Shown: piece after piece, positions 17,534 through 32,631 of the stretch
Position numbering within the stretch: the stretch's first letter is position 1
Layout: the number at the start of each line of letters is the position of its first letter
DNA from: Cyanobacteriota bacterium
GTDB lineage: Bacteria; Cyanobacteriota; Cyanobacteriia; Thermostichales; Thermostichaceae
NCBI GenBank assembly: GCA_033764955.1
Contig: JANRIL010000041.1
Coordinates: 32,001-96,000 of the forward strand
Direction of reading: 5' to 3'
DNA: 64,000 nucleotides
The notes under the pieces: generated by a model
The model's database searches: none
What the model saw: the letters and a program-made list of their open reading frames with translations, nothing else
Told to the model about the DNA's origin: nothing
Program-made: the position numbers and the translations under genes

Positions 17534-17607
<74 letters not shown>

Positions 17608-17735
17608 TGGGCATCAAATGCTTAGCTAGTCAGGGTTTCAGCCATTATTGGCTTCGCTAAACCCTAGCATTTTTTGTGCCGCACGGATCCGTATAGGCAG
17701 TTTTTAAGAGGATTTCAGGTTAGTTTGGGTATGGA

Positions 17736-18731
17736 ATGGGTATGAAGTCTCCAAAAGGGGTAGTAGCAGTTGAGGCATTCCAGAGCCGACTTCGGCTGCG
17801 TTGGCGGCATGATGGAAAGCGGTATACGCTCTCAATTGGTTTGCCAGATTCAAAAGTCAACCGTCAAGTGGCAACCCAGAAAGCGATGCAGATCGAACTA
17901 GATATGGCCAGCGGCAATTTCGACTCTACCCTCAGCAAGTACAAGCCACAGGTTCATACCCAGCTTCATACCCACAAGATGACGGCTCAAAGTCTATTCA
18001 GCAACTATATTGAGTACAAGGCAAATACTGTTCTGCCCAAAACTCTCGATAACTATCGGGTGGTGCCACGATATCTCCATCTATTTTTCGGTCAAAAAGC
18101 CGCTGAATCGATCACATCAGAAGAGGTGGTGAAGTTTGTTGAGTGGTTTGGGCGAGAAGCTACGCTTATACCTAGAGTTCAGCGGGAAAAAGTCGCTATG
18201 ATTCGTTCCGCTTGGGAGTGGGCGATCAAAAACAGACTTATTGAAATCACTCTAAACCCCTGGGAGGATGCCCCCCTCCGTCTGAAGGTACCGCCAAAAC
18301 AGCCGACAAAGCCTTTCACTCAGGAAGAGATCGAGAAAATTATTCAGGGGTTCCGAACGGATCGATTCTATAGTTTCTATACTGACTTTGTGACATTTCT
18401 TTTTTTAAGTGGCTGCCGAACCGGTGAGGCAATAGGTTTACGCTGGGGATCCGTTAGTGAAGACTGCTCGACGATTTGGATCGGTGAAAGTATGGTTAGG
18501 GGTGAAAGAAAATCAACCAAAACTAATAGAGCCAGAGTCATCGCAGCATCAAAAAATCTACAGCAGATGCTCAAACAACGACGCACCTCTTCTGTTGAGC
18601 CAGACCAACTAGTCTTTCCATCTCCCACAGGGAAATCAATTGATGATCATTGTTTTTCTCAGCGATCTTGGAGATCAGTATTAGGAAAATTAAATATTGG
18701 GAACCTCGAAAAATACAATACTCTCCTATAG
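17736..18731 (+). pseudogene. Tyrosine integrase with N-terminal arm-binding domain, C-terminally truncated by an IS
   Basis: Next to tRNA-Pro; SGCRTGEAIGL box I present; H-x-x-R/Y box II absent; frame runs into the IS end at 18699. Confidence 0.85.
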
Positions 18732-19981
18732 CCAAGCGACTCAAGTAGGAGAGCACTCGTCATTGAAGCTCTTGTCAAATCAATTGGGCTTCTTATACTT
18801 GTTACCAATTTAATTTATTAGTTTGTCTCAGTACTTACTTTTCGATTCCTCAAAATCCTCCCTGTCTCTGATGCACCGCTTGCTTCTCCCAATAGATATA
18901 TCGCTTAAAGTTATAAGCTAGATTCCTTAGCCCAATCACTGTCTTTGCCCTAGCAATTCCTATCGTCTCAATCAGTTTCCCTCCCATCTCGTTCACCCAT
19001 GTACCAAAGTTATGCTCGACCTTAGCCCTAGTCTTTGACCGTTCATGGTTCTTCCGTTTCTGTTCCTCACTAAGCTCTTGATTCCGGTATTTCCTCTCAT
19101 GTATCTGGCTCTCATATCCCAGCAAACCTAAAACCTTCTCTTCTAAATCACTGCGATAAGCACTGTCTCCCCACAATTGATCTGAATCATTCTCTACATC
19201 CAGTAAAGCTGTCAACATTTGCGAGTCATGCACCGCCGCATCAGTCACCTCATAGCATCGAATAAACCCATATCTTACATCCACACTTAGATGGTTCTTA
19301 TAGCCATAGTATGATTGACCATTTTTGTCCAGCGTGCATCTCTGTCCTTCTGACTCACTTTTTTAGGCTTATCTTCCCACCCCTCTGGAAACTTTCCCTC
19401 TTTCATCTGTGCATTCTCTTTCTTGCTATTATGTTGCTTGGGTACTGGCACTAAACTGGCATCGACAATCTGACCTCCTCTGGCTTCATATCCTTGTTCG
19501 GTTAAATAGTCATTGAACTGTATAAACAGATCCTTTGCATAACCTCCTTTGACAAGCTGCTCCCGAAATAGCCATACTGTTGTCGCATCAGGAACCCTAT
19601 CTTCCAAGCCTAACTCCAAAAACTCCATAAATGAGAGTCGGTCATTCACCTGGTACTCTAGTTCACTATCACTGATATTGTAGAGACGCTGAAGAATCAA
19701 CATCTTAAACATTAGAATCACATCAATTGGCTTACGACCTGCTAGACTCTTGCGTGCTTTTTGATGAATACTCTCCAACTCCAAGCGAAATTCCTCCCAC
19801 GGAATCATTCTCTTCAAACGCAAAAGCATGTCTTTCTGTTCCGTAAGCTTTTCTTTTCGTTTCTCTAGATCCCAAAATCCCTGCTGACCCATTGCTATCC
19901 TTATGATTTATCTCCTTAAACAATCTCATAAACTATAGAAAGTCGCCAGTCAAATCCCTCAATTGATTTATCGATGTGCCC
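18699..19981 (-). mobile_element. IS5-family insertion sequence (~1283 bp)
   Basis: Imperfect 16-bp terminal IRs (GGGAACCTCGAAAAAT / GGGCACATCGATAAAT, 13/16), TATT on both sides, internal DDE transposase. Confidence 0.85.
18850..19892 (-). pseudogene. IS5 transposase split by a frameshift near 19320
   Basis: DRLSF..PDATT, VDAS, GDSAY and RAKVEH motifs; after WTK the expected NGQSYYGYKNHL continues in another frame at an A-run. Confidence 0.85.
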
Positions 19982-20360
19982 TATTGCGAAGCTTCCCTGT
20001 CCACTTTGATGTGTTTTTATCGATTCCTTTAGTGAAGGATAAACGATTCCAAACTCTATCATCGTGGATTGGGATTGCCTTTTCTTTGGGTAACCAGACG
20101 ATCGGTTTAACCTTAAAGCGAACCACAAAAGGGTCATCCTGAGGAAGAAAAACTGGGTCATCATCTGAGAAGCATTCGCTTTGCACCTCAAAAACCCCTA
20201 TCCATCGAGATAGCTTAGTCATGTAACAGATAAACTTATCGCCAATCTTAATCCGGCTTGCGGCATTTTGTTGACGTAAACGAAACCCAGAAACAGCACG
20301 ATTTGACTGCGAGAATACTTCATAAGTTTCTGGGGAAAAGAGATTCAGGTAGTACGCCAA
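19982..20360 (-). pseudogene. EVE/PUA-like domain protein, probably truncated by the IS
   Basis: MAYYLNLFSPETY..IKIGDKFICY..RWIGVFEV..RFKVKP; GAGGAG RBS; frame ends a few codons into the IS end. Confidence 0.6.
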
Positions 20361-22907: not shown

Positions 22908-23101
22908 AAATTATCAATGCTGATAGTAGAGAGATTGTAGATCCTCACTAATACTGCGATTCAGTCCGACTAGCCATTGGCTCAATAGCTCCCTTGAGGT
23001 TGCGCCACACTCATGGGCTGATGTGAGGGTTTATGGCGATGGCTAGCCAAGCTGTCGCCCTCTGGGTTACGGTGAGGGGTGCTGATTTCAAGACAGACTG
23101 G

Positions 23102-24077
23102 CATGGTTAACGGGGGAGCAACACCGTCTCGTGAAGGGTTACGGATCGGATCCCGCAAAAGCGAGCTGGCTCTGGTTCAATCCCGTTGGGTCTTGGCTCA
23201 GTTGCAGCAGCACTATCCGGATCTGAGTCTGGAACTGCAAACCATGTCCACCCAGGGGGACATCATCCTGGATGTGGCTCTCGCCAAAATTGGGGATAAA
23301 GGACTTTTCACCAAAGAACTGGAAGTAGGCTTGCTGCAAAAAACCAGTGATTTGGCGGTGCATAGCCTGAAAGATTTGCCGACCCAGCTACCGGAAGGCT
23401 TAACTCTAGGAGCCGTCACCAAGCGAGAAAATCCTGCCGATGCCTTGGTAGTACATCGCAACAAGCAGGACTATCAACTGGATACGTTACCCGCCGGAAC
23501 CGTGATCGGCACCTCCTCCCTACGCCGCTTGGCTCAACTGCGCCACCACTATCCCCATCTGGAGTTCAAAGATGTGCGGGGCAACCTCAACACCCGCCTC
23601 AGCAAGCTGGACAATGGTGACTATGATGCCTTGATCCTGGCGGTGGCAGGGCTAGAGCGTTTGGGGATGGCGGATCGCATCCACCAGGTGATTGACCCCA
23701 GCATTTCCCTCTACGCGGTCGGACAGGGATCCCTAGGCATCGAGTGTAGAGCCGATGACGCCCCCACCTTGACCCTGATCAAACCCCTGATCGATCCAGA
23801 ATCTCAGGTTCGTTGTTTAGCCGAACGAGCACTCCTCCGTTCCCTAGAAGGGGGATGTCAAGTGCCGATTGGGGTGCATTCCCAGGTCAGCGGCGACCAA
23901 CTCACGTTAATGGGTATGGTGGCTAGTCTGGACGGAAAAACTCTGATTCGGGATCAGGTGACCGGTTCCATCAAAGAACCGGACCATATTGGCCTCACCC
24001 TCGCCGAGCAACTCAAGGAACTGGGAGCCGCCGACATTCTGCGAGAGATCTTTCGGCAAGCTCGCCCTAGTGCCTAG
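23102..24077 (+). CDS. hemC: Hydroxymethylbilane synthase
   Basis: [30 protein letters not shown] and GGCQVP motifs. Confidence 0.97.
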
Positions 24078-24094
24078 GGATCCCCATACTTCGG

Positions 24095-24727
24095 CTAACT
24101 CAAGACAATATCCTCAGCAGGGCGTTGAGCCAGCCGCTTTAGGTTTTGGTAGCGCAGCACATCCAACAACTCGTTACCGGAGCGTCCTTCTAGGCGGGCT
24201 TCCACATGCAGGGCTTGTCCGAGGGCTTCTACCGCCTGTAACCGAGGGATCCCGCGCAGCACCAGCCGATCCACCGCGTAGGCATCAGCCGCCAAGAGAC
24301 GACGGTCATTGGTTTGATCCCGACGTAATTGCCAGAGGGCTAAACCCCCCAATCCACCGGAAACCGTAATCCCCACCGGATCCTGCTGGAAGGCTTCAAA
24401 GACAAGGCTCAAACTGCCAAGAGCAGTTAAAGCCAGATAAAAGTCAATTTGCCGTGAGATAGCTCGACTATAGTAGCCAACCTTATGCAAAAACAAACCG
24501 GAGCGTTGATTGGGGGTAAATTGCCGCCATTCATGGGGTTTAACAAACAGCCGCAAGCGTCGCCGCCAGAGAAATTGGCGCTGCCCTTTGATCACAGTCG
24601 TTTGCCGATCGGGGGCAGGCAAAATCTCTACAGAATCGCGTAACCCCGCTGGTAATAGATCGAGGAGACGGGAGACTTCAGCCGGATCCAATTCGGGTTC
24701 GTTGTAGCCGTAATAACTACCATTCAT
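24095..24727 (-). CDS. DUF3318 family protein
   Basis: EVSRLLDLLPA, two TM segments, ADAYA and LRYQNL pattern. Confidence 0.7.
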   Translation of the reverse strand: MNGSYYGYNEPELDPAEVSRLLDLLPAGLRDSVEILPAPDRQTTVIKGQRQFLWRRRLRLFVKPHEWRQFTPNQRSGLFLHKVGYYSRAISRQIDFYLALTALGSLSLVFEAFQQDPVGITVSGGLGGLALWQLRRDQTNDRRLLAADAYAVDRLVLRGIPRLQAVEALGQALHVEARLEGRSGNELLDVLRYQNLKRLAQRPAEDIVLS

Positions 24728-24741
24728 GCTGACTATCCCTC

Positions 24742-25461
24742 TCAGCCTAAGCCCATTGCTTGTTTCATTTCCCGCACAGCTCGTTCTAATCCAACCAAGA
24801 CGGCTCGGCTAATAATGCTGTGCCCAATGTTGAGTTCCTCCATGCCGACAATCGCCGCCACCGGCGCAACATTCCAATAAGTAAGTCCATGTCCAGCGTT
24901 GACCCGCAGTCCCAAAGAACGAGCCTGTTGGGTAGCCTCTTCTAAAAGCTTAAGCTGGAATGATCGGATGGCGGGGGTTTTGGCTTCGGCATAGCTGCCT
25001 GTGTGTAATTCTACCCACTGGGATCCCACCTGGGCGGCGGTGGTAATGGGATCCGGATGGGGGTCAATAAACAGGCTGACCGGGATCCCGGCGCTCTGAA
25101 GTTGCTCCACAATGGTTTTGAGGGAATCCGCTTGTCCTACCACATCCAGTCCACCCTCTGTGGTCACTTCCTGCCGACGTTCAGGAACCAAGGTGACATA
25201 ATCGGGTCGCAGGTCAAGGGCAATTGCTACCATCTCCGGCGTAGCGGCCATTTCCAAGTTGAGGTGAGTACGCACCGTCTGCCGCAACAGCCGCACATCT
25301 CGATCTTGAATATGTCGGCGATCCTCCCGCAGGTGAGCCGTAATCCCATCCGCTCCGCCCAGTTCGGCGAGAACAGCCGCCGCTACCGGATCCGGTTCTA
25401 CGGTGCGACGAGCCTGCCGTACTGTTGCCACATGATCAACATTCACTCCGAGACTCAACAA
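24742..25461 (-). CDS. pdxJ: Pyridoxine 5'-phosphate synthase
   Basis: [29 protein letters not shown] and ELNIGH motifs. Confidence 0.97.
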
Positions 25462-25495
25462 AGTAATGATTTCTCCAAGTTGGCCATACTACACT

Positions 25496-25557
25496 TTAGC
25501 CGATTCGGTAGGAAGCCCCGCGCCCTTTTCAGGGTGAGTCTGGGGATGAAAGCCGAG
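25496..25557. other. Hairpin resembling an IS200/IS605-family end remnant
   Basis: CCCCG-CGCCCT-TTTC-AGGGTG..TGGGG stem within TTAGCCGATTCGG..GATGAAAGCCGA; no tnpA/tnpB nearby. Confidence 0.3.
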
Positions 25558-25660: not shown

Positions 25661-25740
25661 CTGAAGTTTATGCAACAGGGATCCCGATCCGGAGTCAGAG
25701 TTGGACTGCGTGAAGGAGATGGACTGAAATAAGCAGCTCG
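25661..25740 (-). repeat. Terminal cassette-leader remnant, including the left copy of a 24-bp direct repeat
   Basis: 25698-25740 identical to 28366-28408; 25661-25684 matches 32585-32608 at 23/24. Confidence 0.85.
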
Positions 25741-26379
25741 CTACTCATCACTTGACCAAACTAACTTGGGAGCAAACCCTAACAACCCATGCTCTTGGAT
25801 CCGCTCAACGAATATGTCTGACACATAAGGCCATGCAGATTTTGGGTGATGTAACTTCATTCTGAAAATAGTTTGATCCTTAACTAAATCAGGATAAAAC
25901 TTGAAACTCACGATACGGCTGAGAGTGCGGTCAGCTAATAAACCCTTGCTTCTCAGAGAATGATAAGAGCCAGGAGGCAATAATTTAGCTTCCTGAGCGG
26001 TATAGCAATAATCAAATTCAGAATTTTCTGTATCCAGAGCATGTACATAATTAGTTATATTATAGCAATAATATAGTCCATCTTCAGTAATGATGGGTAA
26101 CAATTCACCGTTTGGAACAAGTAGATCTTCTAATGCATCTACTGCTTTCTGACTGAAGACACGGCATGAGCCACAACCTGGGAAATCTGAAATAGGATAT
26201 TTTTTAGGTTGCTCATCAGTTACCCAATAAGCCTTGCAGGGAGTCCATTCTTGTTGGATAGATATCCCAGTAAACCATTTTTTCTCAGGAATATTCTTTA
26301 TGATTTTTCGAGCATACTCTCGCTCTAAGTTGAGCAAGTTATAAGAATTTACATCTGCGTCAAGAATATATATTCTCAT
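25741..26379 (-). CDS. Immunity protein 4 (Imm11/DUF1629-like)
   Basis: GELLP, YNITNYVHALD, IFR, VSDIFVE..GLLGF motifs; follows an AHH tip; paralog of 28409-29047. Confidence 0.8.
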   Translation of the reverse strand: MRIYILDADVNSYNLLNLEREYARKIIKNIPEKKWFTGISIQQEWTPCKAYWVTDEQPKKYPISDFPGCGSCRVFSQKAVDALEDLLVPNGELLPIITEDGLYYCYNITNYVHALDTENSEFDYCYTAQEAKLLPPGSYHSLRSKGLLADRTLSRIVSFKFYPDLVKDQTIFRMKLHHPKSAWPYVSDIFVERIQEHGLLGFAPKLVWSSDE

Positions 26380-26404
26380 CTGTTATAATCCTTCATTCTG
26401 GAAA

Positions 26405-26791
26405 TCAAAGATCTAAGTGGCCAATTACTAAATCACGGGTAATTAGTCTTAGTTCTGTAATTATTTTAGATCGAAGCTGAGAGAAATCGTCATTAGGATT
26501 ATCCTCTATAATATCCCTCAATCGCGTATTAACAGCACTATAATAATCACCACTATGCCCACCATTGTGAATGGCACCTGGCACACGCTTCGCTACCTCA
26601 CTATTAGCAGGCAACATCACCCCATTCTCGGCACTGTTGATGCCAATGCCATAATCTCTCAGAATATCCTGGGCTAACTTCGCTGCTGTTGCCGTTGCAG
26701 CCACAATATGATGAGGTCTTGTGCCACAGGGCATGTCCCCATAAACAGCTTCTAATGCTCTTGCCAGTTGGTCAGAGTTGCTAGTAGAAGA
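26405..26791 (-). pseudogene. Orphan toxin tip 3: AHH nuclease domain only (internal ATG at 26734)
   Basis: RPHHIV..INSAENGVMLP..HNGGH; close DNA paralog of ~29210-29472; lacks Pro linker and pre-toxin domain. Confidence 0.75.
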
Positions 26792-26901
26792 TCATGATTC
26801 TGTTTGTATTGTCTCTATCAGAATGCTAAAGATTATGTTGAGATTGCGTTGGCTCTATGAAATGTGAGATTTACCTTTCTCTGATAGGAATTTTGGAGTG
26901 T

Positions 26902-27453
26902 CTAAGAGGAGGATGACCAGACTTTATCAAACTTAAACCCTGTTAAATGATGTTGGCGAACCAACTCGACAAATTGATCGCTGACATAAATACTATATCT
27001 AAATTGTTTATGAGGAATCCTAAAAATTTGCAAATCACCTATTTTACTTGGAAAGAATGAATGCTTTAGAATCTCTATAGGAGATCCAGAGGGAAGTGTT
27101 CTAAATTCGGAGTTTTGTTCATCTAAGCAATCGCAAGATGAGGTAAAGTGATAAGCAAAATATGCGCCGAAACATGGTTGCAGTGGTAAAAGCTCTCCAC
27201 TCTCTAATAAAAAATTACCTAAAACCATAATTGCCAAATCACTAAAAACTGGAATAGTTCCATAAATAGTAGCTCGATCACCAGGTATCCTCCCTCTTTG
27301 TCTTTTTGATATTGAGAGATGTACTGGATTCCAGATATCTCGAATTGGATTATCCTTATGCCATCCCAGCTCCATTAATTTCTTTGACTGATCAGGATCT
27401 AGGCAATGAAACATTATCCCATTATTATCGATTACAAGCAGATATATATTCAT
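26902..27453 (-). CDS. Immunity protein 3 (Imm11/DUF1629-like)
   Basis: MNIY start, GELLP, DCLDEQNS, IFR, VSDQFVE..LTGF..VW. Confidence 0.8.
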   Translation of the reverse strand: MNIYLLVIDNNGIMFHCLDPDQSKKLMELGWHKDNPIRDIWNPVHLSISKRQRGRIPGDRATIYGTIPVFSDLAIMVLGNFLLESGELLPLQPCFGAYFAYHFTSSCDCLDEQNSEFRTLPSGSPIEILKHSFFPSKIGDLQIFRIPHKQFRYSIYVSDQFVELVRQHHLTGFKFDKVWSSSS

Positions 27454-27457
27454 GGAT

Positions 27458-28408
27458 CTAAAGCCATAGACTTGAATCATGGTTCAGAAGTCTAGTTCTT
27501 AATTCATTGAGGATTTGAACTATTTCATTGACTGGTTCATTGTTATCTTTAGCAGACTTTAATAATGTATTTACCGTATTGATATACTTGCTTGTATGAA
27601 TAGTTTGATGATACGGCCCAGGAGCATAGGACTCTCTTCCCCCAGGTAAGAAAACTCCATTCACTGCATCATCAATGCTAATTTGATAGCTATCTAATAC
27701 ATCTCGTGCTTGCTGAGCACTAGGATCATTTTGCTCTACAATATGATGCGCCTGAGTATCACATGGTTGAAAGGTTGGGGGAGGCGCTTCAGGTAAATGG
27801 CTCCCTTGTTGCATATTTTGGGCTAGGCGATTAGTGGGTGATATCCGACATTCCACCTCAAATTCTATAAATTGATTGGCTTGACCGTCAGTTCCAAGAA
27901 GACTACTCCAAACAGTAGCTGAGGATGGAGAAATACTGTTCAGCAGTTGAAAACCCATAGTGGCAGGCGGATAAGTCCCCTCAGAAGCTACCTCAATTTT
28001 TATCTTACTGAAAACTGCTCTGAGTTGAAGAGGCTGGTTTGCTACGGTTCCCTGATCCCAAAGCAATTGGCTTGATTGGGTAGTTTCGACTTGTGGGTAT
28101 GGAGGGTTGATAGTGACTCCATTTTGCTTATTCAGGAGAGGTGTAACAGTGATGCTAACTCTGTCTCCATCATCAGGATAATGTCCATTATCCCACAACT
28201 CATTTTCAAGCAAATATTCATTGGAACTAATGACAATACTGGAGGGAGGAATCTTATCGTCAACTTTGGGATCCGGTGAAGGACTAGGAGAGGGAGAAGG
28301 ACAAGCGGAGGGAGTGGGATCTGGGGGAGGATCTGGAGTCGGAGGAGGATCCCGATCTGGAGTCGGAGTTGGACTGCGTGAAGGAGATGGACTGAAATAA
28401 GCAGCTCG
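27458..28408 (-). other. Orphan toxin cassette 2: Pro linker + DNGH domain + AHH nuclease, with no start codon at its 5' end
   Basis: Frame open from 28408 to 27458; QAHHIV..DAVNGVFLP..HQTIHT; 63 bp identical to the main toxin gene. Confidence 0.85.
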
Positions 28409-29047
28409 CTACTCATCACTTGACCAAACTAACTTGGGAGCAAACCCTAACAACCCATGCTCTTGGATCCGCTCAACGAATACGTCTGACACATAAAGCA
28501 GACCAGCTTTTGAGTGATGTAAGTCCATTCTGAAAACAACTTGGTTTTTAACTAAATCAGGATGAAACTTGTAATTTATGATATGACCAAGGCTACGATC
28601 AGCTAATAATCCCTTAGTCCTTAAATAACCATAAGAACCAGGAGGGAGTAATTTAGCTTCTTCAGCAGTATAGTAATAATCAAACTCAGAGTTTTCTGTA
28701 TCCAGAGCATCCACAAAGTTAGTTACGTTGTAGCAGTAATAGGTTCCATATTCGGTAATGATAGGTAATAATTCACCGCTTGGAATAAGTAGGTCTTCTA
28801 ATACGTTCACTGCGTTCTGACTGAAGGCAATACGCCCCCCACAACCTGGAAAATCTGAAAGAGGGTACTTTTTAGGTTCTTCATCAGTTACCCAATAAGC
28901 TTTACAAGGAATCCATTCATGCTTAATTGGTTTTCTATACAACCATTTTCTCTCTCTGTAGTTAGCAGTAATTCTTCTAGAATCACTTGATTCAAGATTA
29001 AGCAAGTTGTAAGGATTAGCATCCCAATCAAGAATATAGATATTCAT
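28409..29047 (-). CDS. Immunity protein 2 (Imm11/DUF1629-like)
   Basis: MNIY start with GAGGAG RBS; GELLP, YNVTNFVDALD, VSDVFVE..GLLGF..WSSDE. Confidence 0.85.
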   Translation of the reverse strand: MNIYILDWDANPYNLLNLESSDSRRITANYRERKWLYRKPIKHEWIPCKAYWVTDEEPKKYPLSDFPGCGGRIAFSQNAVNVLEDLLIPSGELLPIITEYGTYYCYNVTNFVDALDTENSEFDYYYTAEEAKLLPPGSYGYLRTKGLLADRSLGHIINYKFHPDLVKNQVVFRMDLHHSKAGLLYVSDVFVERIQEHGLLGFAPKLVWSSDE

Positions 29048-29082
29048 TTGCTCCTCTTCTGTATCTTTGTTAAAAGTCTGGC

Positions 29083-30045
29083 TTACAATTGCAAATTCCC
29101 AAGAACTAAGTCGTTAGCAATTTTTCTTAGTTCATCAATTATTTTCCCTCTAATTTGCTGATAATTGTTACTGTTAGTAACTGCTTGATCTCTAGTTATT
29201 CTCAGTCGGTCGTTAACAGCACTATAATAAGCACCACTATGTCCACCATTATGAATAGCACCTGGCACACGCTTCGCTACCTCACTATTGGCAGGTAACA
29301 TCACCCCATTCTCAGCACTGTTGATGCCAATGCCATAATCTCTCAGAATATCTTGAGCTTCCTGCGCTGCTCCTGCCGTTGCCGCCACAATATAATGGGG
29401 TCTTGTGCCACAGGGCATGTCCCCATAAACAGCTTCTAATGCCCTTGCCAGTTGGTCGGAGTTACTGCTGGAAGTATAAGATAATCTCCTGCATTCCAAA
29501 TTAAATTGATACTTTTGACCCAGCTCTAGCATTGGTAGATTGGCACTCAATGGCTTTAACTGACTATAGCTACTGATGCTTCCTCCTGTTGGGTCATGAT
29601 TATTAAACAAAAGGTTGAGGGTCGCTGCATCAGGATAACTCCCCAAATCAATCGCCTCAATAGTAACAGAATTGTTAAATCCTGGTAAATCAACTGTCTG
29701 TAAGTTCCCTAATGTGATTGTTAGCTCGACAGGAGAGAGAGCAGGTTGAGCTGCAATATCAGAGGTAGAAGGGTTAAAAGAACCCGCAGATTCGATAGTT
29801 AGCTTGATGCGATCTTGATCCTGGTGATGTCCATTGTCTTCAAAGTTTATACCCAGAGAATAAGTATCATTCTTCAAGACCACTCTTACAGCAGACTGAA
29901 AGGCAAACGGAGTCGGATCCTTTAGGTCAGGACTAGGGCTAGGAGAGGGCGAAGGACAAGCGGAGGGACTGGGATCCGGGGGAGGATCTGGAGTGGGACT
30001 TGGGCTGAGAGGCGGCGGTGGTGGCGAACTGAATAAGCAGCTCAC
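29083..30045 (-). CDS. Orphan toxin cassette 1: Pro linker + DNGH domain + AHH-type nuclease (PHY variant)
   Basis: GTG overlapping the immunity-1 stop; PDPSPSACPSPSPSPSPD linker as in the main gene; NSAENGVMLP..HNGGH. Confidence 0.8.
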   Translation of the reverse strand: MSCLFSSPPPPPLSPSPTPDPPPDPSPSACPSPSPSPSPDLKDPTPFAFQSAVRVVLKNDTYSLGINFEDNGHHQDQDRIKLTIESAGSFNPSTSDIAAQPALSPVELTITLGNLQTVDLPGFNNSVTIEAIDLGSYPDAATLNLLFNNHDPTGGSISSYSQLKPLSANLPMLELGQKYQFNLECRRLSYTSSSNSDQLARALEAVYGDMPCGTRPHYIVAATAGAAQEAQDILRDYGIGINSAENGVMLPANSEVAKRVPGAIHNGGHSGAYYSAVNDRLRITRDQAVTNSNNYQQIRGKIIDELRKIANDLVLGNLQL

Positions 30046-30596
30046 TCCTCATCACTTGACCAAATCTTGCGAAACAGAAAGCCTGTTAATCGAGCCCGTT
30101 CAACAATATTTACAAACTGATCTGTCACACAGGGATAGCTATCATGAGGAATTTGCACAGTCTTAAAAATGGTAAGTTGGGAAACCTTTTGTGGAATAAA
30201 ATAATATTTTTTGATATAATAAACTAAGCCATTTTGATTCTTTGATAGGGAAGACTTTTCTTCATCAAGAGCATCTACAATCGTTGTGGTATTGTAGAGA
30301 TAGAATGTTCCATTATCACTTTCTAACGGTAATAACTCTCCATTCATCTCTAGTACTTCTCCTAAAGCTTCTACTGCTTTCTCGGTAAATGCAGGCATCC
30401 CACTCAATCCTGGAAAATCACTAATTAGTCGAGGGGGTTTGTCAAGATCACTAACGAGCTGGACTGGTACTGGCTCCCAAATTCCTAATACAGGATTTCC
30501 AGAGAGAAATTTACTCACTTTATTGAGTTTCTCCCCACTGCCCACAACTAAACTTCGATATCTACTAACATCGGGTACTAAATGATAAATATTCAT
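30042..30596 (-). CDS. Immunity protein 1 (Imm11/DUF1629-like), cognate to the full-length toxin
   Basis: Starts 10 nt after the toxin stop; GELLP, YNTTTIVDALDEEKS, IFK, VTDQFV..LTGF..IW. Confidence 0.85.
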   Translation of the reverse strand: MNIYHLVPDVSRYRSLVVGSGEKLNKVSKFLSGNPVLGIWEPVPVQLVSDLDKPPRLISDFPGLSGMPAFTEKAVEALGEVLEMNGELLPLESDNGTFYLYNTTTIVDALDEEKSSLSKNQNGLVYYIKKYYFIPQKVSQLTIFKTVQIPHDSYPCVTDQFVNIVERARLTGFLFRKIWSSDEE

Positions 30597-30606
30597 GCTC
30601 TGAACC

Positions 30607-32451
30607 TCAATGGGGAAATGTTTTTGCAATCAGTTCTTGTCGAATGTTATTCAATACATCTTGAATGTTAAATGTTGTTGCTCCTGGTTGATTTGCTGCT
30701 GCTGCTAATCTTCTCCTAACTTCCTGAACATAAGTGTTCGTATGAAGCCCTGGAGATTGATTATGAGGTGTGCCAGGAACGGGAATGCTATTATTCTGTG
30801 GTAATACTACTCCGTTTGAGGCACTGTTGATATGAATATCAAACTGAGTCAGAATATCTTTAGATGCTTGTACCGCTTCACTCATTTCCGGACTACCACT
30901 AAAGTTTCCTTTCGGCACAATATGATGAGCTGCCGTACCACATGGCATCCTTTTCCCATAATATCCAAATGGCTCTGAAAATACATTCCCAGATAAATTC
31001 ATGTGGAGTCCTTGCTCCATATTTCTGGCTAGCTTAGCGGCATCATCACTGCCACCAGCCGGAGCACGACGACACTCTACTTCAAAGGTAATGCTTTGGT
31101 TAGCACTCAACAACACACTCCCTTCAAATGTGGTGAGGCTAACCGATTGACTAGATCCAGGGAGAGGAGTTGGATCTTGTTCTACCTTTTCTATCTTAAA
31201 TTCTAGAGTGGCTGGCGGATATTCTCCTTCCGATAACCCCTCAATGGTGACTTTGTTCTCAACTGACTGGAGATCAAATACACTTGATTTGTCTTGAGCC
31301 GATAAATTAATAGAATCTTGCTCACCTGTAGCAGAACTAAGAGTATATCCAGTAGGTTCAACGGTAATAATAACGGAATCACCATCAGAAGTATGATGAC
31401 CATTATCGTTAAGCTTCATCGTAAATTGTTGATAGTCATGCACCACAACCTTGACAGGAATCTTATCGTCAACTTTGGGATCCGGTGAAGGACTAGGAGA
31501 GGGAGAAGGACAAGCGGATGGACTGGGATCCGGAGTTGGGGGAGGATCCGGAGTAGGAGTGGGTTGAGGAGTGGGAGTAGGACTCGGTGAAGGGAAAGGA
31601 TCTGGTTGGTTATAAATCTCTTCTAGAGTAGCGGCAAAAGCAGCTAGCTGCTCAGGAGCCATATAGTCCTCGACCAAGGCTAACAACTGAGCCGTGGAAT
31701 AGCCAACTAAGCCAAAGACTTCAATAGTTGTGAGAATACAGCCATTGGGATTGGCAAGAGCCAAGCATTGGTTAATAGCAGTTGCAAACGCTTGTGGGGA
31801 AACAGAACTAGTCTTGCTTTCGCTCTCAGAGAGGTGAAGGCTACTCTGGTCAGGAGGGCAAGGATCCGGAGTGGGAGTTGGGCTGGGAGGTGGCGGTGGT
31901 GGCGGTGGCGGTGGCGGTGGCGGTGGCGGCGGTGGTGGCGGAGTGGGATCTGGAGAGGGGAAAGGAGAAGGACTGGGGGTTGGGCTAGGAGAAGGGGAAG
32001 GACTGGGGGAAGGAATCGGGGAGGGACAAGTATCACGAGTCACTTCAAAGAAGCTTTGAGTTCCATCGGTTCTGCCGTAGCAGGCTTTAGTGCATTGGGA
32101 AGTACCCGTTAAAACATTTGTCCAGCAAAAATCATAGTAATAGCGAGTTGGCTGATCAAAAATCTGCTCTAGGGAATGGAAACGAGCATTATTCCAGCAG
32201 CGCGGCCCATGATAGAGCCAGGTTCCGTTATGGGGATAGTAGTAGTAGCACTGCGCACAGACCTGGCACATGGGAGTGCGAGTGGGGGATCCTGTTGGGG
32301 AAGGGCTGAGAGAGGCTGCTGGGGATGCTGCCACATTGACCGGATCATTGGGATCAACAGCAGGAGCAATCACCGTAGGAGCATGACTAACCGCACAGGC
32401 GGCTAAGCCAAAGCTGAGCAATCCTCCCCAGAGCCAAATCGAGCGAGCCAT
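30607..32451 (-). CDS. Lipoprotein polymorphic toxin with C-terminal AHH (HNH/EndoVII-fold) nuclease
   Basis: Signal peptide ending LAA-C (Cys19); Cys-rich domain; Pro-rich linkers; TAAHHIV..INSASNGVVLP..H..GLHTNTY. Confidence 0.85.
   Translation of the reverse strand: MARSIWLWGGLLSFGLAACAVSHAPTVIAPAVDPNDPVNVAASPAASLSPSPTGSPTRTPMCQVCAQCYYYYPHNGTWLYHGPRCWNNARFHSLEQIFDQPTRYYYDFCWTNVLTGTSQCTKACYGRTDGTQSFFEVTRDTCPSPIPSPSPSPSPSPTPSPSPFPSPDPTPPPPPPPPPPPPPPPPPPPSPTPTPDPCPPDQSSLHLSESESKTSSVSPQAFATAINQCLALANPNGCILTTIEVFGLVGYSTAQLLALVEDYMAPEQLAAFAATLEEIYNQPDPFPSPSPTPTPQPTPTPDPPPTPDPSPSACPSPSPSPSPDPKVDDKIPVKVVVHDYQQFTMKLNDNGHHTSDGDSVIITVEPTGYTLSSATGEQDSINLSAQDKSSVFDLQSVENKVTIEGLSEGEYPPATLEFKIEKVEQDPTPLPGSSQSVSLTTFEGSVLLSANQSITFEVECRRAPAGGSDDAAKLARNMEQGLHMNLSGNVFSEPFGYYGKRMPCGTAAHHIVPKGNFSGSPEMSEAVQASKDILTQFDIHINSASNGVVLPQNNSIPVPGTPHNQSPGLHTNTYVQEVRRRLAAAANQPGATTFNIQDVLNNIRQELIAKTFPH
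31885..31941 (-). repeat. Tract of 19 Pro codons (mostly CCA/CCG)
   Basis: GGTGGC-type repeat on the plus strand. Confidence 0.95.
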
Positions 32452-32584
32452 TCAGCCGTACCCTGCCAAACCTTCCACAGGCTACCGGCGATTAAGTAGC
32501 TTTCTAAAAAAAATCATAATTGTTTAATATTATGGATGAACTGAATGAAAGAAAGCGGATCCACCCCTTTCTCTAGTCATAGCT

Positions 32585-32631
32585 CTGAAGTTTCTGCAAC
32601 AGGGATCCGGATCTGGGGGAGGATCCGGAGT
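32585..32631 (-). repeat. Right copy of the 24-bp direct repeat plus Pro-linker-like fragment (TPDPPPDPDPCCRNFR)
   Basis: CTGAAGTTTCTGCAACAGGGATCC matches 25661-25684; adjacent GGATCTGGGGGAGGATC matches the cassette-2 leader. Confidence 0.8.

Follow-up and report, generated by a model that had tools for sequence, protein, structure and literature searches.

We examined a cluster of eight genes in a 64,000-nucleotide stretch of DNA from a hot-spring cyanobacterium of the Thermostichaceae (assembly GCA_033764955.1, contig JANRIL010000041.1, positions 32,001 to 96,000; hereafter the window, numbered from its first nucleotide), which probably form a polymorphic toxin/immunity locus headed by a lipoprotein toxin. 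The source genome measures 3.8 Mb in 48 contigs, is 89% complete and carries, besides the array in the window, a second one on another contig (C44). For comparison we used a set of 23 genomes of the family and a sample of 400 other genomes of the phylum.

Organization of the array

An earlier reading of the bare sequence (the original prediction) had proposed a 614-aa toxin gene followed by the alternation imm1, tip1, imm2, tip2, imm3, tip3 and imm4, and all eight open reading frames (ORFs) were found on the minus strand where it had placed them, consecutive and within 25741-32451. The main toxin gene (30607-32451) codes for a protein of 614 aa with a lipobox at the N-terminus and an AHH domain at the C-terminus, and is followed by imm1 (30042-30629), tip1 (29083-30045), imm2 (28409-29047), tip2 (27458-28408), imm3 (26902-27480), tip3 (26405-26734) and imm4 (25741-26379). 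The four imm genes code for Imm11 proteins, imm4 being a paralogue of imm2 with 72% amino acid identity; tip1 and tip2 are orphan cassettes made up of an in-frame Pro-rich linker, a domain termed C and the AHH domain, and tip3 comprises the AHH core only (109 aa, with stop codons upstream). On the same strand the start of a fourth cassette (25661-25740) consists of linker only, about 20 codons, before it ends in a copy of a border repeat (25661-25692).

Searches against Pfam placed AHH (PF14412) in all four toxin-like ORFs (E-values 6.9e-13, 4.5e-11, 4.2e-15 and 6.9e-14; 43-56 bits) and Imm11 (PF07791) in all four immunity-like ORFs (E 8.1e-10 to 3.5e-7; 30-39 bits). With gathering cut-offs of 22.3 bits for AHH and 22.1 bits for Imm11, all eight domains lie above threshold. 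An immunity gene is located directly downstream of the toxin gene each time, at a distance of 4-35 nt. The likely start of imm1 is an ATG at 30596 (MNIYHL), 10 nt past the stop of the main gene. No signal peptide was visible by eye in the Imm11 proteins.

The array had also been described as more AT-rich than its flanks. This is the case for positions 26000-31499, where the GC content in 500-nt intervals is 0.35-0.47, compared to 0.53-0.58 in the flank that carries pdxJ and hemC (23000-25499). The 5' third of the main gene (31500-32499), rich in Pro codons, has a GC content of 0.53-0.56, and low GC therefore does not span the entire locus.

A predicted lipoprotein toxin heads the array

The main protein starts with M-A-R-S-I-W-L-W-G-G-L-L-S-F-G-L-A-A-C, in which R3 and a hydrophobic run lead to the lipobox L-A-A-C19. 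As predicted, this N-terminus passes a PROSITE-style lipobox rule, as do only 49 of the 3197 ORFs of at least 150 aa in the genome. Behind Cys19 follow a Pro/Ser/Ala-rich spacer of about 40 residues, a Cys-rich domain A with eight Cys (residues ~61-142), a Pro-rich linker (143-197) with one uninterrupted stretch of prolines, domain B (~198-283), a second linker (284-326), domain C (~327-480), a pre-toxin domain with a predicted beta-sandwich fold, and finally the AHH nuclease domain (503-607). The latter has the HH, N, H, H and Y positions given for Tox-AHH in the residue list of the table in PMC3482391.

Pfam detected AHH alone in the main protein and, in agreement with the original prediction, no Rhs, CdiA, MafB, VgrG/PAAR or Hint module, nor a TPS/FHA or VENN module. 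NCBIfam returned Pro-rich noise and AHH and no other family. When domains A, B and C were each scanned alone against Pfam at E up to 10, only chance-level rows appeared, and the N-terminal domains, which have almost no relatives, match no family in Pfam or NCBIfam. A sequence search of solved structures gave Pro-rich noise for the toxin and no credible match for Imm11, and single-protein scans of genome and metagenome contigs gave no relative. In a word search with the whole protein the genome's own paralogue was found; all 56 other matches were Pro-rich low-complexity sequences and were discarded.

Domain C was modelled from an alignment of eight homologues as a beta-sandwich (predicted local distance difference test score, pLDDT, 74.7; predicted template modelling score 0.72). 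Foldseek found nothing similar to it at E ≤ 0.001. In the VIA fold search the best Z was 6.5, which is within the tool's stated background, and the matches were generic sandwiches of the Ig, Calx-beta, FN3 and C2-like kinds. The AlphaFold2 model of residues 55-290 (domains A and B) had a pLDDT of 43 and was unusable.

Orphan cassettes and junction homology

In tip1 and tip2 the reading frames open right at the stop codon of the preceding immunity gene, begin with the in-frame Pro-rich linker and stay open for 316-321 codons, the frame of tip2 extending over 316 codons from the imm2 stop. The single listed start of tip1 is a GTG, the first codon of its frame, and the first start codon of tip2 is a TTG at 28213, within domain C (the ORF as listed covers 27458-28213). 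Main gene and tip2 share an exact match of 63 nt (main nt 934-996), which runs from the last part of the linker into the start of domain C and is embedded in 144 nt of 84% identity. Past this junction no nucleotide alignment is possible and the proteins are still about 40% identical. The same junction of the main gene aligns with tip1 over 81 nt, with 83% identity. Orphan modules of contact-dependent inhibition (CDI) and Rhs systems show this kind of abrupt change from near-identity to divergence where their tips are swapped. The spare tip/immunity cassettes of the original prediction hence appear as start-less frames homologous to the main gene at the junction.

Further homology is found within the array itself. 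The fourth cassette start is 97% identical to the start of tip2 over 62 nt, tip3 is 91% identical to tip1 over 262 nt, and the segments tip1-imm2 and tip3-imm4 show 80-91% identity at an offset of 2668-2684 nt. From this we conclude that the array expanded when a unit of two cassettes was duplicated in tandem. Regarding the active-site residues, tip2 keeps AHH followed by N, H, H and Y, tip3 reads PHH and tip1 reads PHY, having lost the second His of the HH dyad; the C44 counterpart of tip1 reads H-H at this position, as does tip3. The tip1/tip3 type carries P where the AHH family motif has A or G.

Standalone cassettes as defined by Zhang et al. 2012 correspond to what we found in the window, namely start-less, in-frame tips with homology to the junction of the main gene; from this we infer a capacity for displacement. 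No switched (recombinant) form of a tip was observed.

A second array and purifying selection on the cassettes

Contig C44 of the same genome carries three further AHH domains. The array there begins with an Imm11 gene and continues with a truncated copy of the main gene, imm1', tip1', imm2', tip2' and imm3', followed by an unpaired 177-aa Imm11-like gene, a gene with SUKH and TPR domains, another Imm11 gene and a cassette remnant. The copy of the main gene begins at residue 183 and is without signal peptide and without domain A. In total the genome contains 7 AHH domains and 10 Imm11-type genes.

Corresponding proteins of the two arrays are 76-93% identical. The ratio of nonsynonymous to synonymous substitution rates (dN/dS) was 0.13-0.32 in all nine paralogue pairs analysed, which comprise the window/C44 counterparts and three further pairs; the orphan tips tip1 and tip2 gave 0.26 and 0.32, respectively, against their C44 copies. 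The cassettes are therefore under purifying selection, maintained as coding sequence and not decaying.

Two observations concern the C44 array only. The 177-aa gene has no Pfam match and does match an Imm11 profile built here, and together with the SMI1/KNR4 (SUKH) and TPR gene of 377 aa it lies in a heterogeneous poly-immunity stretch without a matching toxin (L008 12446-14232, source genome G000, C44). In the domain B copy (L008 7353-7676) a Cys is replaced by Phe, so that Q-C-L becomes Q-F-L; this substitution is consistent with relaxed constraint on a copy without an export signal.

Borders of the island

A 32-nt imperfect direct repeat (91% identity) brackets the island at 25661-25692 and 32585-32616, and coincides with the end coordinates proposed in the original prediction. 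In the upstream border (32479-32631, minus strand) about 47 nt resemble the linker, the repeat copy 32585-32616 encloses an att-like core (32585-32610), and a conserved leader, AT-rich and about 130 nt long, ends 27 nt before the ATG of the main gene. In the C44 array core and leader lie immediately before the first immunity gene. Altogether the border element was found four times in the genome, at 32479-32631 and 25661-25692 in the window and at C44:221 and C44:104661 in G000. At C44:221, where the leader is present as well, the core is identical to the 12 codons that end a CCG-domain gene (Pfam 21.4 bits, cut-off 20.6). Based on the repeats the island is one unit of 6924 nt, bounded by direct repeats of the linker-to-core junction. 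Borders of this kind suggest either that the end is att-like or that a tandem or circular form has left a remnant here.

No recombinase gene is present inside the 6924-nt island and none was identified for the border element. In a search for the empty site PadR was found beside an HlyD-type gene in 4 of 10 loci of relatives, pdxJ was adjacent in none of them, and no pre-insertion site was definable. The upstream neighbour of the island in the window codes for a PadR regulator. Scans for promoters and terminators gave counts not above those in shuffled sequence, and the Rfam scan gave just a sub-threshold RgsA row.

Other regions of low GC content were noticed besides the island. A third one starts at C44:221, and its genes are of the response-regulator, GGDEF/EAL and kinase-like types. 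At a distance of about 5 kb from the island the window contains a separate AT-rich patch (17534-20360), which resembles a small degraded integrative element at a tRNA gene: it comprises a tRNA-Pro (17534-17607), a tyrosine integrase (17736-18731; Arm-DNA-bind_2, Phage_integrase), an IS5-type transposase present as two ORFs (18850-19892; DUF772, DDE_Tnp_1) and an EVE-domain gene (19968-20360).

Related carriers across genomes

A search with the whole protein gave matches in 32 of 41 related genomes. Nearly all of these were to the Pro-rich linker, and the real ones cover domain C and AHH only. Domain A is present as a single copy in the source genome and absent from the other 22 genomes of the family. 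An exhaustive HMMER search for it among 1.84 billion representative sequences gave four matches, of which one is credible (P0062); the other three, repeat or low-complexity proteins, were rejected. P0062 is a protein of 511 aa with four similar small Cys-containing modules in tandem and, according to Pfam, a C-terminal sorting domain of the type IX secretion system. Domain B was found only in the main gene and in its C44 copy: the word search gave no match, the ESM Atlas contained nothing above 0.8, and the 400 other genomes of the phylum contained none. One match within the family (E 0.0017) was judged spurious, as the large protein that contains it resembles a sensor kinase on visual inspection.

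Domain C is more widely distributed. The word search returned just the genome's own paralogue. With a profile we detected the domain in 7 of 23 family genomes (one of them borderline), with four weak matches (E 4e-5 to 8e-4) in the 400 other genomes of the phylum. AHH itself is rare in the phylum sample, being present in 6 of 401 genomes.

The proteins that carry domain C in the relatives were inspected individually. In G017, recorded as a metagenome-assembled genome of Thermostichus, the carrier is a lipobox protein of 526 aa in which a Cys-rich motif, domain C in two copies and AHH are combined, and an Imm11-like gene follows it. The Cys-rich motif of G017 recurs in the carriers of G005 and G013, which also have a lipobox, a domain C-like region and an EndoU-like C-terminus and are followed by a different small, immunity-like gene; the EndoU assignment has a Pfam E of 2.5e-11 for G005, the one of the two on which Pfam was run. 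The G003 carrier, a frame of 1069 codons, has a lipobox and a long N-terminal region that is unrelated to the others, and then a linker, domain C and a weak match to AHH. This gene is split into two frames in G010 (L022, C225), and G002 has a lipobox protein with a weak match to domain C. All seven related carriers pass the lipobox rule, and five types of N-terminus occur among them. The carriers of G017 and of G005/G013 have lipobox, Cys-rich motif and domain C in common and differ in the toxin, which is AHH in the former and EndoU in the latter. Since the toxin domain varies among carriers, they constitute a polymorphic toxin family by definition. Judged from these sequences, the predicted lipobox anchoring is the common denominator of the carriers and the putative beta-sandwich is the module that stays with the toxin. 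The variable C-termini are found on these related lipobox carriers; a full-length carrier with domains A and B exists in one copy only among everything searched.

Some further features of these carriers were recorded. The G003 carrier has a hydrophobic helix before the linker, and is followed by three Imm11-like genes and by a second lipobox protein (564 codons) with a weak VWD match (L025 658-7692, C58). The Cys-rich motif (L011 2683-3072 in G017, L024 3651-4040 in G005, L040 1015-1404 in G013) is about 35 residues long, belongs to no Pfam family and has at least 232 relatives in metagenomes. From 80 metagenome loci kept (L063-L142) 79 genes with the motif were extracted, in which it is mostly located C-terminally; 24 of the 79 pass the lipobox rule. 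The two longer hosts scanned with Pfam are a metallo-beta-lactamase-fold protein and a staphylococcal-nuclease homologue, and others are small (60-130 aa).

Proposed mechanism and alternative explanations

We consider it probable that the window contains a polymorphic toxin/immunity locus with a Sec-exported, lipid-anchored toxin, a swappable C-terminal unit, neutralisation by Imm11 proteins, and start-less cassettes serving both as a reserve for recombination and as a store of immunity. This reading builds on the anatomy of genes and domains, the homology at the junction, the purifying selection under which the cassettes stand and the presence of a lipobox in every related carrier. Nor was another delivery module seen: in the genome, which is 89% complete, neither Hcp nor RHS_repeat was found, with both search controls matching as expected. 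ShlB likewise gave no match in the genome, but here the search control matched nothing either. A single full-length toxin would be exported by Sec and, as the lipobox indicates, lipid-anchored at Cys19. About 140 residues of Pro-rich spacer would set apart the anchor, the Cys-rich domain A, the probably helical domain B and the C-terminal unit, the latter composed of the predicted beta-sandwich pre-toxin domain and a putative AHH DNase of the HNH/EndoVII fold. In the cytoplasm the Imm11 protein encoded just downstream would bind and neutralise the nuclease. The start-less cassettes, without an export signal of their own and consisting of linker, beta-sandwich and AHH, each with its own Imm11, could act as a reserve: homologous recombination in the common linker DNA would give the expressed carrier another tip, and the immunity genes of the cassettes may protect against those tips when they are deployed by neighbours. 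In the orphans the beta-sandwich is inherited together with the toxin, and it is found again on lipobox carriers that are otherwise unrelated; we therefore infer that it is a module for binding to or entry into the target cell, comparable to the CdiA-CT entry domain or the SitA escort domain. Delivery to neighbours in dense mats, either by contact, via vesicles or after cleavage of the linker, is the least certain step. Delivery may depend on the lipoprotein and serve in competition or kin discrimination, as the original prediction suggested.

Several points weigh against such a mechanism. Only one full-length carrier has the N-terminus found in the window, so that polymorphism on it would be hypothetical, and no recombinant tip was observed. 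A lipobox would indicate anchoring on a non-cytoplasmic side only, and in a cyanobacterium this could be the plasma membrane, the thylakoid lumen or the outer membrane. The fold matches of the modelled domain C are generic and carry no information on function. Furthermore, the excess of Imm11-type genes over AHH domains, the reduction of tip3 to the AHH core and the H-Y dyad of tip1 fit a partial decay of the array or a hoarding of immunity genes.

Hoarding can also be regarded as an explanation in its own right, in which the locus is mainly an immunity island against the AHH toxins of neighbours and the start-less tips are remnants of past insertions. Such an island is compatible with the toxin/immunity locus proposed above. 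Along with the surplus of immunity genes and the defects of tip3 and tip1, the C44 array speaks for it: its leader runs straight into an immunity gene, the toxin gene in the lead has lost its N-terminus, and the unpaired Imm11-like gene and the SUKH and TPR gene are found in the same array. Against it stand the long open frames of tip1 and tip2 with their low dN/dS values, the preservation of the 63-nt exact match to the junction of the main gene, and the full-length and, by prediction, exported toxin at the head of the array, and we regard hoarding as the main function of the locus as unlikely.

Less probable still is a SitA-like system proper, that is an outer-membrane lipoprotein passed on by outer-membrane exchange after receptor-mediated recognition. 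The layout is indeed the same as in SitA, with lipobox, disordered stretch, N-terminal domains, AHH tip and downstream immunity gene (PMC8546572), and the low-GC, repeat-bounded DNA recalls the location of sitA genes near mobile elements (PMC5562445). However, according to PMC5562445 SitA homologues were found only in Myxococcales, in species with traAB, no Pfam or NCBIfam family but AHH matches the main protein, and the neighbour upstream is the PadR regulator and not a sitB-like gene. An intracellular toxin-antitoxin or anti-phage abortive-infection module instead of an exported weapon, which might be suspected from a nuclease beside a small, predicted neutralising protein in AT-rich and probably mobile DNA, is highly improbable in view of the signal peptide and lipobox on the main toxin and on all seven related carriers, of PADLOC matching none of the eight proteins, and of the AHH/Imm11 pairing with orphan arrays, which is among the hallmarks of polymorphic toxins named in PMC3482391.

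Returning to the proposed polymorphic toxin/immunity locus, we tentatively extend it to a broader possibility: cyanobacteria of the Thermostichus family may own a toxin delivery that is independent of secretion systems, with a lipid carrier tethered by polyproline, a swappable unit of beta-sandwich and nuclease, recombination in the linker, and a low-GC unit of 6.9 kb that would move between sites on the chromosome and whose att-like end would be a copy of the 3' terminus of a CCG-domain gene. If true, antagonism or kin discrimination in cyanobacterial mats would be based on a mechanism non-homologous to SitA outer-membrane exchange, CDI, Rhs and the type VI secretion system.

Antagonism between cyanobacterial cells is little documented, and a literature search with most subscription journals outside its scope returned no description of a lipoprotein toxin system in cyanobacteria. 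In hot-spring mats closely related ecotypes of the Thermostichus family predominate, and a toxin system that separates self from non-self would shape the population structure there. AHH is scarce in the phylum, yet the source genome contains several such domains and even more Imm11-type genes. The locus provides predicted toxin/immunity pairs, a candidate entry module and an unusually clear recombination junction.

Comparison with known systems

Regarding the system as undescribed, which the original prediction put forward as a possibility, was overstated. Lipobox-bearing N-termini (APD1 and APD2) were published in 2012 (PMC3482391), and the prediction itself pointed to lipoprotein toxins in myxobacteria, among which SitA proteins with AHH tips are established (PMC8546572, PMC5562445). 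According to Zhang et al. 2012 (PMC3482391), who list Tox-AHH together with Imm11 and report both families in cyanobacteria, toxins may be exported by a signal peptide only, and lineage-specific N-terminal domains, including the lipobox-bearing APD1/APD2, were proposed as surface anchors. The N-domains of this Sec-exported class (termed 'T2SS', type II secretion system) include MafB-N, a Microscilla N-domain and APD1/APD2. Like the members of this class described there, the locus in the window relies on a signal peptide or lipobox only, without a module of a dedicated secretion system, and has N-domains restricted to a narrow lineage, Tox-AHH with Imm11, standalone cassettes and poly-immunity arrays. 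In contrast, Pfam gives no match to the N-terminal families of the class for domain A, domain B or the beta-sandwich, and MafB-N (DUF1020) does not follow the signal peptide. The APD proteins, as described in PMC3482391, target a eukaryotic host and are without serial displacement of cassettes, whereas here a lipobox carrier is combined with a classic orphan array.

In SitA toxins, which are likewise lipoproteins, a disordered stretch and escort domains are combined with modular nucleases, AHH among them (PMC5562445, PMC8546572). As far as these two sources describe them, the main toxin resembles them in the lipobox, the disordered stretch behind it, the non-toxic N-domains and the modular nuclease (AHH, PF14412), and the locus resembles theirs in the cytoplasmic immunity gene downstream and in its association with mobile DNA. 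Unlike in SitA there is no sitB upstream, and PMC8546572 nowhere uses the word 'orphan'.

The arrangement of a full-length gene followed by start-less tip/immunity pairs with a short conserved junction is that of CDI and Rhs orphan arrays, and in both the swappable unit is a pre-toxin domain together with the toxin. The TPS/FHA, RHS/YD repeat, VENN, PAAR and Hint modules of those systems are missing here, and the junction lies in the DNA of a Pro-rich linker. The sole AHH relative found on a viral contig has, judged by eye, the make-up of a classic Rhs/YD and Hint-like protein with AHH at its end.

The general kind of toxin is hence already published, both as lineage-specific lipobox N-termini and as SitA, and the N-terminal domains A and B are without credible relatives apart from P0062 for domain A. 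By the sequence features compared here, the locus would be placed outside the SitA, CDI, Rhs and Maf families, as a blend of a predicted lipoprotein carrier with an orphan array of the CDI/Rhs style, in which features known separately from CDI/Rhs and from SitA are joined.

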